DNA of 64,000 nt, from assembly GCF_002854065.1 (NCBI RefSeq), contig NZ_CP024147.1. One strand, given 5' to 3'. The position numbers were made by a program, and so were the translations under genes. The notes under the pieces are model-generated. The model was not told the origin of the DNA. It was given only the letters and a program-made list of their open reading frames with translations, and searched no databases. Of the stretch, positions 37,674 to 37,882 are shown piece by piece (positions within the stretch are counted from its first letter, which is position 1; every line of letters begins with the position of its first letter). Source of the DNA: Escherichia coli. GTDB taxonomy: Bacteria > Pseudomonadota > Gammaproteobacteria > Enterobacterales > Enterobacteriaceae.

Positions 37674-37882
37674 GTTTTTTCCTGTGAAAATTTAATTCTG
37701 AAATAATGTCTAATATTGTATTCCAGATAGCACAGGAACTGCACGTCATAAGTGCTAAATATAGTCTTAAAATTATAAGAATGTGACTTTACACATTTTT
37801 AATTAGTCGTTAATCTAATAGGAAAGAGATTATAATATTTATATTAGGAATATATAATGTGAAATCATATATTCCAGTGATA
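37674..37882 (-). promoter_or_regulatory. AT-rich upstream region of the SinH-like gene (probable promoter, possible H-NS target)
   Basis: About 210 bp of visibly AT-rich sequence immediately 5' of the sinH-like start and 3' of yfgJ. Confidence 0.4.

Follow-up and report, generated by a model that had tools for sequence, protein, structure and literature searches.

A probable regulatory region in the AT-rich gap between yfgJ and the adhesin gene sinH of Escherichia coli

The 209-bp gap between yfgJ and sinH (positions 37674-37882) is an ordinary AT-rich regulatory region and represents a rare divergent allele of a well-described kind. It is probably the native, normally silent regulatory region of the adhesin genes sinH and sinI. 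The gap was analysed as part of a 64-kb stretch (64,000 nucleotides) of Escherichia coli DNA, which is referred to here as the window. That the iatB/sinH promoter of E. coli SMS-3-5 is silent and responds to LeuO is already known (PMC6714894). New are the rare divergent allele itself, the localisation of a probable -10 element, of a 19-bp box found across genera and of a hairpin at the end of yfgJ, and the assignment of yfgJ to a variable block.

Gene order and alleles of the sinH locus

The window corresponds to the E. coli chromosome around xseA-hisS. The order on the minus strand is hisS, yfgM, bamB, der, yfgJ, the gap, sinH, sinI and a ratA-like gene. The gene der (38161-39672, minus strand) codes for a ribosome-biogenesis GTPase. 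The upstream neighbour of the gap, yfgJ (37883-38098, minus strand), codes for a double zinc-ribbon protein (Pfam PF07191 Zn_ribbon_6, 98.9 bits). The gene served by the gap is sinH (= iatB; 35493-37673, minus strand), which encodes an intimin-like inverse autotransporter. Its product matches the NCBIfam equivalog NF033423 (inverse_SinH) with 1480 bits compared to a cut-off of 999, over positions 1-726 and thus over the full length. The downstream gene sinI (34472-35437, minus strand; NCBIfam partner_SinI, 420 bits) encodes an autotransporter-associated partner. It is followed by the ratA-like gene of a giant adhesin (28596-34181, minus strand), which is split into two ORFs (30507-34181 and 28596-30308) with a stop at 30507-30509. 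A previous interpretation of the same DNA without database searches (the sequence-only reading) had named a sinH-like gene and yfgJ as the genes flanking the gap; its coordinates and gene calls are correct. The sinH-sinI adhesin genes are the E. coli counterpart of the CS54 island of Salmonella ('ila' cluster).

In strain K-12, the island is absent, and xseA and yfgJ are convergent with an overlap of 4 bp. When the DNA of the window was aligned with that of K-12, der was found to be near-identical and the identity was lost exactly at the der stop codon. YfgJ of the window shares 63% amino acid identity with YfgJ of K-12. The sinH-linked E. coli YfgJ alleles (window, ST131 and SMS-3-5) are 80-90% identical among themselves; their identity to Salmonella YfgJ is 67-75%, compared to 63-66% to K-12 YfgJ. 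These values and the break at the der stop codon indicate that yfgJ is part of an exchangeable block. The gap is therefore internal to this variable block and not the junction between core genome and island. YfgJ stays beside sinH and co-varies with it, and the two might share one functional module.

The gene sinH was detected at this site in 1746 of 5426 complete E. coli genomes. The ExPEC-type gene, which includes ST131 and ABU 83972, accounts for 1698 of the 5426 and is 72-74% identical to the window over positions 37300-37900. The window-type allele (at least 95% identity) is rare and was found in 48 of the 5426 genomes; strain 100416 and the O145:H28 strains RM13516 and RM12761 are of the window type. 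Its SinH protein is 97-99% identical to those of Escherichia whittamii and Escherichia sp. E1V33. Such a rare allele with close counterparts in E. whittamii and E1V33 is in line with the earlier suggestion of a horizontally acquired region, but the variable segment begins at the stop codon of der and not at that of yfgJ.

For comparison, 19 sinH loci were selected. They cover several Escherichia species and allele classes, three Salmonella types, two Citrobacter, three Pseudocitrobacter and one Superficieibacter. A yfgJ homologue is located directly upstream of sinH, with an AT-rich gap in between, in 18 of the 19 loci (five genera). The remaining locus represents a class of E. coli alleles that lacks yfgJ and has a der-sinH spacer of 656 bp. 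In Citrobacter and Superficieibacter, transporter and sugar-utilisation genes lie between yfgJ and der; the adjacency of yfgJ and sinH is still kept. The gap is 200-234 bp long in 16 of the 18 loci and 333-345 bp in two Salmonella types, with a G+C content of 22-34%. Identity to the gap of the window is 99% for E1V33, 66% for SMS-3-5 and 64% for ST131. For the genera other than Escherichia, the first alignment gave values of about 40-45%, which is near random for such a composition. Four features recur in the gaps, namely a stem-loop after the yfgJ stop codon, a 19-bp box, the hexamer TAnAAT and a Shine-Dalgarno sequence.

The yfgJ-sinH region of the Salmonella enterica CS54 island shares with the window the gene order and the conserved box, which reads TTAGGAATATATTTAG in Salmonella. 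A TATAAT hexamer follows this box after 33 nt, and the distance between -10 element and ATG is 43 nt. It differs in the length and composition of the gap (345 bp with 34% G+C in the main type, 333 bp in subsp. salamae) and in the SinH protein, which is 73% identical. Also, the Salmonella island comprises five genes compared to three in the E. coli cluster; the two additional ones are presumably ratB and shdA.

Base composition, putative promoter elements and the conserved box

The gap had been described as roughly 210 bp of visibly AT-rich DNA unlike the flanking genes. Both statements were confirmed. The 209 bp have a G+C content of 24.9% compared to 51.8% for the window, while the values for yfgJ and sinH are 45.8% and 48.1%, respectively. 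Of the two AT runs quoted in the earlier description, one is exact and located at 37798-37822. The other is wrong in its first letters and reads TTATAATATTTATATTAGGAATATATAATG (37830-37859) instead of ATATAAT..., which is a trivial slip. Measured in 100-bp windows, the patch with less than 40% G+C extends from about 37591 to 37980 (about 390 bp).

Equally AT-rich 209-bp windows make up 0.15% of all such windows in the 64-kb window and fall into three clusters. Besides the one in the yfgJ-sinH gap, two lie in gaps of the core genome close to yfgG (21.8-22.9 kb), one between pdeF and a hypothetical gene (21858-22038) and one between yfgG and yfgH (22401-22710). Both of these core-genome gaps are locally as AT-rich as the yfgJ-sinH gap, so that AT-richness is not diagnostic of foreign DNA. 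The island genes themselves are not compositionally foreign either, since low G+C was found in none of sinH (48.1%), sinI (52.1%) and ratA (51-52%). Compared to the window (51.8%), this coding range of 48-52% is genome-like.

The predicted -10 element is TACAAT at 37715-37720 (minus strand). It matches TATAAT in five of six positions, including A at position 2 and T at position 6. In 15 of the 19 loci, the hexamer TAnAAT follows the box at a distance of 33-34 nt, with 34 nt in the window. It reads TATAAT in ST131, Salmonella and Citrobacter, TAAAAT in Pseudocitrobacter and TAGAAT in E. albertii. The variation falls on the third position, which is the least constrained one of the sigma-70 -10 hexamer. 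The distance between TAnAAT and ATG varies from 32 to 62 nt among the loci, as expected of a promoter and not of an RNA element. The best -35 candidates are located at 37739-37744 (minus strand), either GTGCAG with a spacer of 18 nt or TGCAGT with a spacer of 17 nt. Neither the position-weight scan nor the alignment yielded a -35 element near TTGACA, the best options being poor and not conserved.

In the position-weight scan, TACAAT ranked first in the window and in four relatives. Promoter prediction, which the sequence-only reading had proposed as a check, gave no support for this candidate. Its score of 8.0 is no better than the best score of shuffled sequences (8.1 ± 1.7), which is due to the poor -35 element. 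Likewise, a consensus promoter scan of 34000-38400 yielded two weak minus-strand matches in the gap, a number that shuffled sequences reach as well. Since the prediction does not exceed shuffles, the case for a promoter is based on the conservation of the -10 element and of its spacing to the box, and on the experiment with SMS-3-5. The proposal that the gap is a promoter region is thus supported indirectly, by the conserved TAnAAT, box and Shine-Dalgarno sequence in a gap that is otherwise about 40% identical, and by the iatB fusion in SMS-3-5.

The position of the -10 element places the expected transcription start near 37708-37710. The 5' untranslated leader predicted on this basis has a length of about 35 nt (37674-37710, minus strand). 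The leader contains the Shine-Dalgarno sequence AGGA at 37683-37680, about 7 nt before the ATG, which is conserved as AGGA or GGGA. No significant structure was found in the leader (z = -0.7). An Rfam search at a permissive threshold returned no credible family; the best match was GEBRO with 14.1 bits compared to a gathering threshold of 284.7 (E = 0.18).

The 19-bp box is located at 37755-37773 (minus strand), at about -65 to -47 of the predicted promoter. Its consensus is TTTTTAnGAnTnnATTTAG and the window reads ATTTTAAGACTATATTTAG. The box is recognisable in 18 of the 19 loci, and 15 of its 19 positions are conserved in at least 10 of 11 lineages, compared to a mean top-base fraction of 0.57 for the columns of the gap. 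It is the most conserved element of the gap and at least equal to the first sinH codons in this respect. These characteristics make it a candidate site for an activator or anti-silencer. The consensus sequences of CRP, IHF, Fis, Lrp, PhoP, SlyA, sigma-E and sigma-54, compared by eye with the conserved blocks, do not fit across lineages. A scan of metagenomes for the box pattern as a regulon search was uninformative. Of 120 matches, one belonged to a sinH locus, and the other 119 were attributable to chance in environmental contigs of low G+C.

The left part of the box, TA(A/G)GA, is a perfect half-site TN(G/A)GA of RcsB, and its sole variable position is restricted to A or G like in the motif. 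The complete box of the RcsB homodimer, TN(G/A)GAN4TC(T/C)NA (Huesa 2021), is not present, as the left half (TAAGA or TAGGA) fits and the right half (ATTTA) does not. For RcsAB, the box TaAGaa|tatTCctA was described, and for BglJ-RcsB a motif with a central core wwTTCykA bound by RcsB (Salscheider 2014). TA(A/G)GA also agrees with the reverse complement of this core and with the right half of the RcsAB box. In sites of RcsB heteromers, only one of the two halves resembles the RcsB motif, and BglJ-RcsB is itself an antagonist of H-NS. The half ATTTA(G) is invariant and not RcsB-like, and would thus suit an RcsB heteromer. Compared to operators of the RcsB family, the RcsB-like half lies distal to the promoter, which is the less common orientation, and both SMS-3-5 and E. 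whittamii have lost the half-site. A half-site of 5 nt is also easily matched by chance in AT-rich DNA. The link to RcsB may therefore serve as a lead and is not a finding. The box TTTTTAnGAnTnnATTTAG is held 33-34 nt upstream of the -10 element in Escherichia, Salmonella, Citrobacter and Pseudocitrobacter. That it would serve as the operator for a sinH-specific activator or anti-silencer, for example RcsB with an auxiliary partner, is a doubtful proposition at the present stage.

Hairpins and transcription units

A stem-loop (GGAAUAUAUGAU-UUCAC-AUUAUAUAUUCC) formed by an inverted repeat is located at 37847-37875 (minus strand), 7 nt past the yfgJ stop codon. Its AU-rich stem of 12 bp contains two G-C pairs and is more stable than dinucleotide shuffles (z = -2.8). 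The hairpin is not followed by a U-run, but by UAAUAUAAAU. In keeping with this, a terminator scan gave no match in the gap, and the features of an intrinsic (Rho-independent) terminator are lacking after yfgJ.

The window-type group keeps the hairpin with wobble changes only. Among its four sequences, the changes are one-sided and no compensatory changes were found. In other lineages, hairpins with lineage-specific sequences were observed at the same place. The minimum-free-energy fold of the first approximately 75 nt after the yfgJ stop codon gave z < -2 in 11 of 14 loci. ST131 has a stem of 19 bp (fold of -27 kcal/mol) and Citrobacter a stem of 16 bp (-29 kcal/mol). A U-run is missing after these hairpins, too. 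On the basis of the predicted folds, the hairpin is probably a transcript-end or stabilising structure for the der-yfgJ mRNA that acts as a weak or partial barrier to read-through. Without a U-run, some read-through from der-yfgJ may occur. A second inverted repeat, the palindrome TAAAAATGTG-TAAAGT-CACATTCTTA (37776-37801, minus strand; 10-nt arms, 90% complementary), is located about 80 bp upstream of the predicted start. It is lineage-specific and only partly kept outside the window-type group.

It had also been proposed that sinH, sinI and the ratA-like gene, being co-directional with short gaps, form one leftward transcription unit. The length of 55 bp given for the sinH-sinI gap is correct (35438-35492). 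This gap contains a small stem and a strong Shine-Dalgarno sequence before sinI. In a scan of 34000-38400, all three gaps proved free of terminator-like sites. Co-transcription of sinH and sinI is mentioned in a 2025 review with reference to Shea 2022. We conclude that sinI is probably co-transcribed with sinH.

The gap between sinI and ratA has a length of 290 bp (34182-34471), compared to 85-137 bp in ExPEC-type E. coli, Salmonella and Citrobacter freundii loci, and the description as short does not hold for it. The extra DNA consists of a stem-loop (ACCATTCCC-GCAA-GGGAATGGT; 34460-34439, minus strand) and a pair of REP elements (34414-34385 and 34350-34316, minus strand). The REP consensus is matched exactly at 34317-34344, with zero matches expected by chance. 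The stem-loop and the REP pair are likely an attenuator or an mRNA-end element. The two ratA ORFs match profile positions 3-1213 and 2126-2683 of 2683, and relative to strain 100416 the premature stop (30507-30509) lies just past a deletion junction. Strain 100416 carries an IS1 in its ratA-like gene instead. The long sinI-ratA gap with stem-loop and REP elements and the broken ratA make a three-gene transcript doubtful in this strain. Of the proposed unit, the coupling of sinH and sinI across 55 terminator-free bp is retained, while its extension to the ratA-like gene is not. The broken ratA-like gene is probably not efficiently transcribed from the yfgJ-sinH gap.

Possible silencing of the putative promoter, alternative explanations and implications

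The gene iatB of E. coli SMS-3-5 was stated to be an orthologue of Salmonella SinH (Goh et al. 2019, PMC6714894). A chromosomal lacZ fusion and Western blots showed no expression of iatB in LB or M9 at 28, 37 or 42 °C (PMC6714894). In a screen of about 30,000 Tn5 mutants with an iatB promoter-lacZ fusion, 12 of 12 up-mutants carried insertions oriented to drive leuO, and overexpression of LeuO increased iatB mRNA approximately 15-fold, the protein still being undetectable (PMC6714894). Compared to this locus, whose promoter is the closest known relative of the gap, the window has the same gene order (der-yfgJ-gap-sinH-sinI-ratA) and the same gap length of 209 bp. The G+C content of the gap is similar (23.9% in SMS-3-5, 24.9% in the window), TACAAT is identical, the distance from the -10 element to ATG is 44 nt compared to 41 nt in the window, and a hairpin follows yfgJ in both. 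However, the gaps are only 66% identical, which also limits the transfer of the LeuO response from the SMS-3-5 allele to that of the window. The SinH proteins differ as well, and the box of SMS-3-5 is degenerate (AATAATGATATATTTAT), without a TNRGA half-site. A ChIP site of sigma-54 inside Salmonella sinH (PMC3844500) is absent from the window.

The sequence-only reading had regarded the AT-richness as typical of promoters silenced by H-NS. Binding of H-NS depends chiefly on AT content, although not all AT-rich DNA is bound (Lucchini 2006, PMC1550270). The text of that study contains no gene-level mention of the locus, and our literature search on sinH and CS54 yielded no transcription start, H-NS ChIP or hns-mutant data. 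According to its title, Shimada 2011 (cited in PMC6714894) describes LeuO as an antagonist of H-NS. The title of another reference in PMC6714894 presents FdeC, a further inverse autotransporter of E. coli, as regulated by H-NS.

A search with up to two mismatches for the 10-mer TCGATAAATT, which is reportedly a high-affinity nucleation site of H-NS, gave no match in 37674-37882; the nearest matches are at 37180 and 38094. A motif of this kind is not obligatory for binding of H-NS. Like the surface-gene promoters silenced by H-NS and relieved by an antagonist (bgl, leuO, fdeC), the gap shows an AT-rich patch over a weak promoter, and the orthologue iatB is silent in laboratory culture and induced by LeuO. 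In contrast to these promoters, it lacks the high-affinity motif and the patch is short (about 390 bp). It is also distinguishable from classic low-GC H-NS islands, as the sinH-linked genes are host-like in composition. Silencing of the gap by H-NS is plausible but unproven, its likelihood ranging from about even to slightly better.

The sequence of events that we consider probable can be described as follows. The AU-rich stem-loop, which is evident in the predicted fold, would end or stabilise the der-yfgJ message. It is followed by about 70 bp of very AT-rich DNA and then by the 19-bp box. The conserved -10 element TACAAT, 34 nt past the box and combined with a poor -35 element, would act as the promoter of sinH. 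Transcription would start near 37708-37710 and produce the leader of about 35 nt with its Shine-Dalgarno sequence. A good -10 element and a weak -35 element in an AT-rich patch of about 300-400 bp suggest that this promoter is intrinsically weak and off in culture. It would most likely be coated by H-NS and be switched on by an antagonist or activator. LeuO has this effect on the orthologue in SMS-3-5, and the box may be the site of another factor.

Other explanations of the gap were considered. It is conceivable, though rather unlikely, that the promoter is run by a specific activator bound at the box, with no material part played by H-NS and with an AT content that reflects ordinary intergenic composition plus promoter or UP-like sequence. 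Such a promoter would agree with the core-genome gaps around pdeF, yfgG and yfgH, which are locally just as AT-rich, with the lack of a match to the H-NS 10-mer in the yfgJ-sinH gap, and with the host-like coding G+C of the island. The strongest conservation in the gap is also found in a discrete box of 19 bp with invariant G residues, resembling the site of a specific protein. On the other hand, the sole regulator of the orthologue found by experiment is LeuO, which is best known for relieving repression by H-NS. The reported regulation of FdeC by H-NS points in the same direction, and the patch of about 390 bp with less than 40% G+C is the type of DNA preferred by H-NS.

A dedicated silenced promoter would not be needed if sinH and sinI were expressed mainly by read-through from der-yfgJ, the gap being a leaky hairpin attenuator with incidental AT-richness. 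The genes are co-directional, and yfgJ immediately precedes sinH in 18 of the 19 loci, including those in which yfgJ is apart from der. These arrangements, the hairpin without a U-run, which is not a canonical terminator, and the promoter predictions, which are all at chance level, would fit this explanation. We nevertheless regard it as improbable. In SMS-3-5, the chromosomal iatB::lacZ fusion and the blots were silent in culture despite der, an essential and constitutively expressed gene, lying just upstream, so that read-through must be small. Furthermore, a -10-like hexamer and a box at fixed spacing across genera are inexplicable for a mere spacer. Least of all do we expect the gap to encode a small RNA or small protein of its own. 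Short ORFs are present, such as those of 26 aa (37706-37786, plus strand) and 30 aa (37810-37902, minus strand), and the first 100 nt fold better than shuffles. However, conservation is confined to short DNA blocks and does not extend to an ORF or a longer structure, Rfam gave no match and the leader has no significant fold. An additional ORF of 50 aa overlaps the sinH start in another frame.

Taken together, we favour the gap as the native, normally silent regulatory region of sinH and sinI. The SinH protein is a vaccine candidate and serves extraintestinal pathogenic E. coli as an adhesin (PMC9937491, PMC12525524). Since laboratory cultures do not produce it (PMC6714894), the timing and the mode of activation of its promoter are of importance. 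The -10 element, the box and the hairpin are natural targets for reporter mutagenesis and for a pull-down of the regulator. If an RcsB heteromer did act at the box, expression of this vaccine-candidate adhesin would be tied to envelope-stress signalling.

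Allele classes of sinH and the position of yfgJ

At least three deeply diverged allele classes of sinH occupy a single chromosomal site in E. coli, as seen in E. coli genomes and in the compared loci L023, L025 (strain SMS-3-5, where the gene is called iatB) and L030. The class present in the window was found in 48 of 5426 E. coli genomes, while the ExPEC type, which includes ST131, was found in 1698 of the 5426 (72-74% nucleotide identity). In the third class (ca. 70% protein identity), yfgJ is absent and the spacer between der and sinH measures 656 bp.

The YfgJ protein of the window (gene region 37883-38160) shares 63% identity with its K-12 counterpart, and the stop codon of der is the exact point at which DNA identity between the window and K-12 collapses. 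The sinH-linked YfgJ alleles of E. coli are 80-90% alike and are closer to Salmonella YfgJ than to K-12 YfgJ. It follows that yfgJ moves together with the sinH block and, in the window, is not part of the conserved core.

Genes lie between der and yfgJ in the compared loci L013 (2789-5515), L029 (1-2523) and L009 (778-5484), and the boundary between der and yfgJ appears to be a hot spot for insertions. In Citrobacter, der and yfgJ are separated by genes for a POT-family transporter and an oxidoreductase; in Superficieibacter, by LacY-like, melibiase and AraC-type genes. In both genera, sinH still lies directly downstream of yfgJ.

The AT-rich gap upstream of sinH

The gap between yfgJ and sinH (37674-37882) is matched in AT-richness by two core-genome gaps, pdeF-hypothetical (21858-22038) and yfgG-yfgH (22401-22710), both of which contain 209-bp windows of 23-24% G+C.

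A palindrome, TAAAAATGTG-TAAAGT-CACATTCTTA (37776-37801; 10-nt arms, 90% complementary), is located ca. 80 bp upstream of the predicted transcription start; its conservation is limited to the window-type group. The distance between TGTG and CACA in it does not match that of a CRP site. Immediately before the predicted -10 element, TTCCTGTG (37731-37738) is perfectly complementary to CACAGGAA (37679-37686), which covers the Shine-Dalgarno sequence of sinH; this complementarity is at about chance level and only partially conserved. If the two paired, they might occlude the ribosome-binding site, but only where transcription was initiated further upstream, as in read-through from yfgJ.

In Salmonella LT2, a sigma-54 ChIP site (TGGTACGGATCTTGCCAT) was reported inside sinH (PMC3844500), whereas no counterpart was found in the window at up to three mismatches (sinH at 35493-37673).

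The sinI-ratA spacer and the ratA-like gene

The spacer between sinI and the ratA-like gene is 290 bp long in the window; other lineages have 85-137 bp. The additional sequence (34316-34460) consists of a GC-rich stem-loop, ACCATTCCC-GCAA-GGGAATGGT, and a REP pair, one member of which (34317-34344) matches the REP consensus exactly. Further REP matches were found in the window at 10953-10980 and 57679-57706.

The ratA-like adhesin gene itself (28596-34181) is broken, with an in-frame stop (30507-09) located after a deletion junction (30538-50). Relative to strain 100416, the closest genome, the deletion comprises ca. 835 bp. Strain 100416 carries an IS1 insertion in its ratA-like gene in place of the deletion and stop of the window. 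The ratA-like gene has thus been inactivated twice independently within one lineage.
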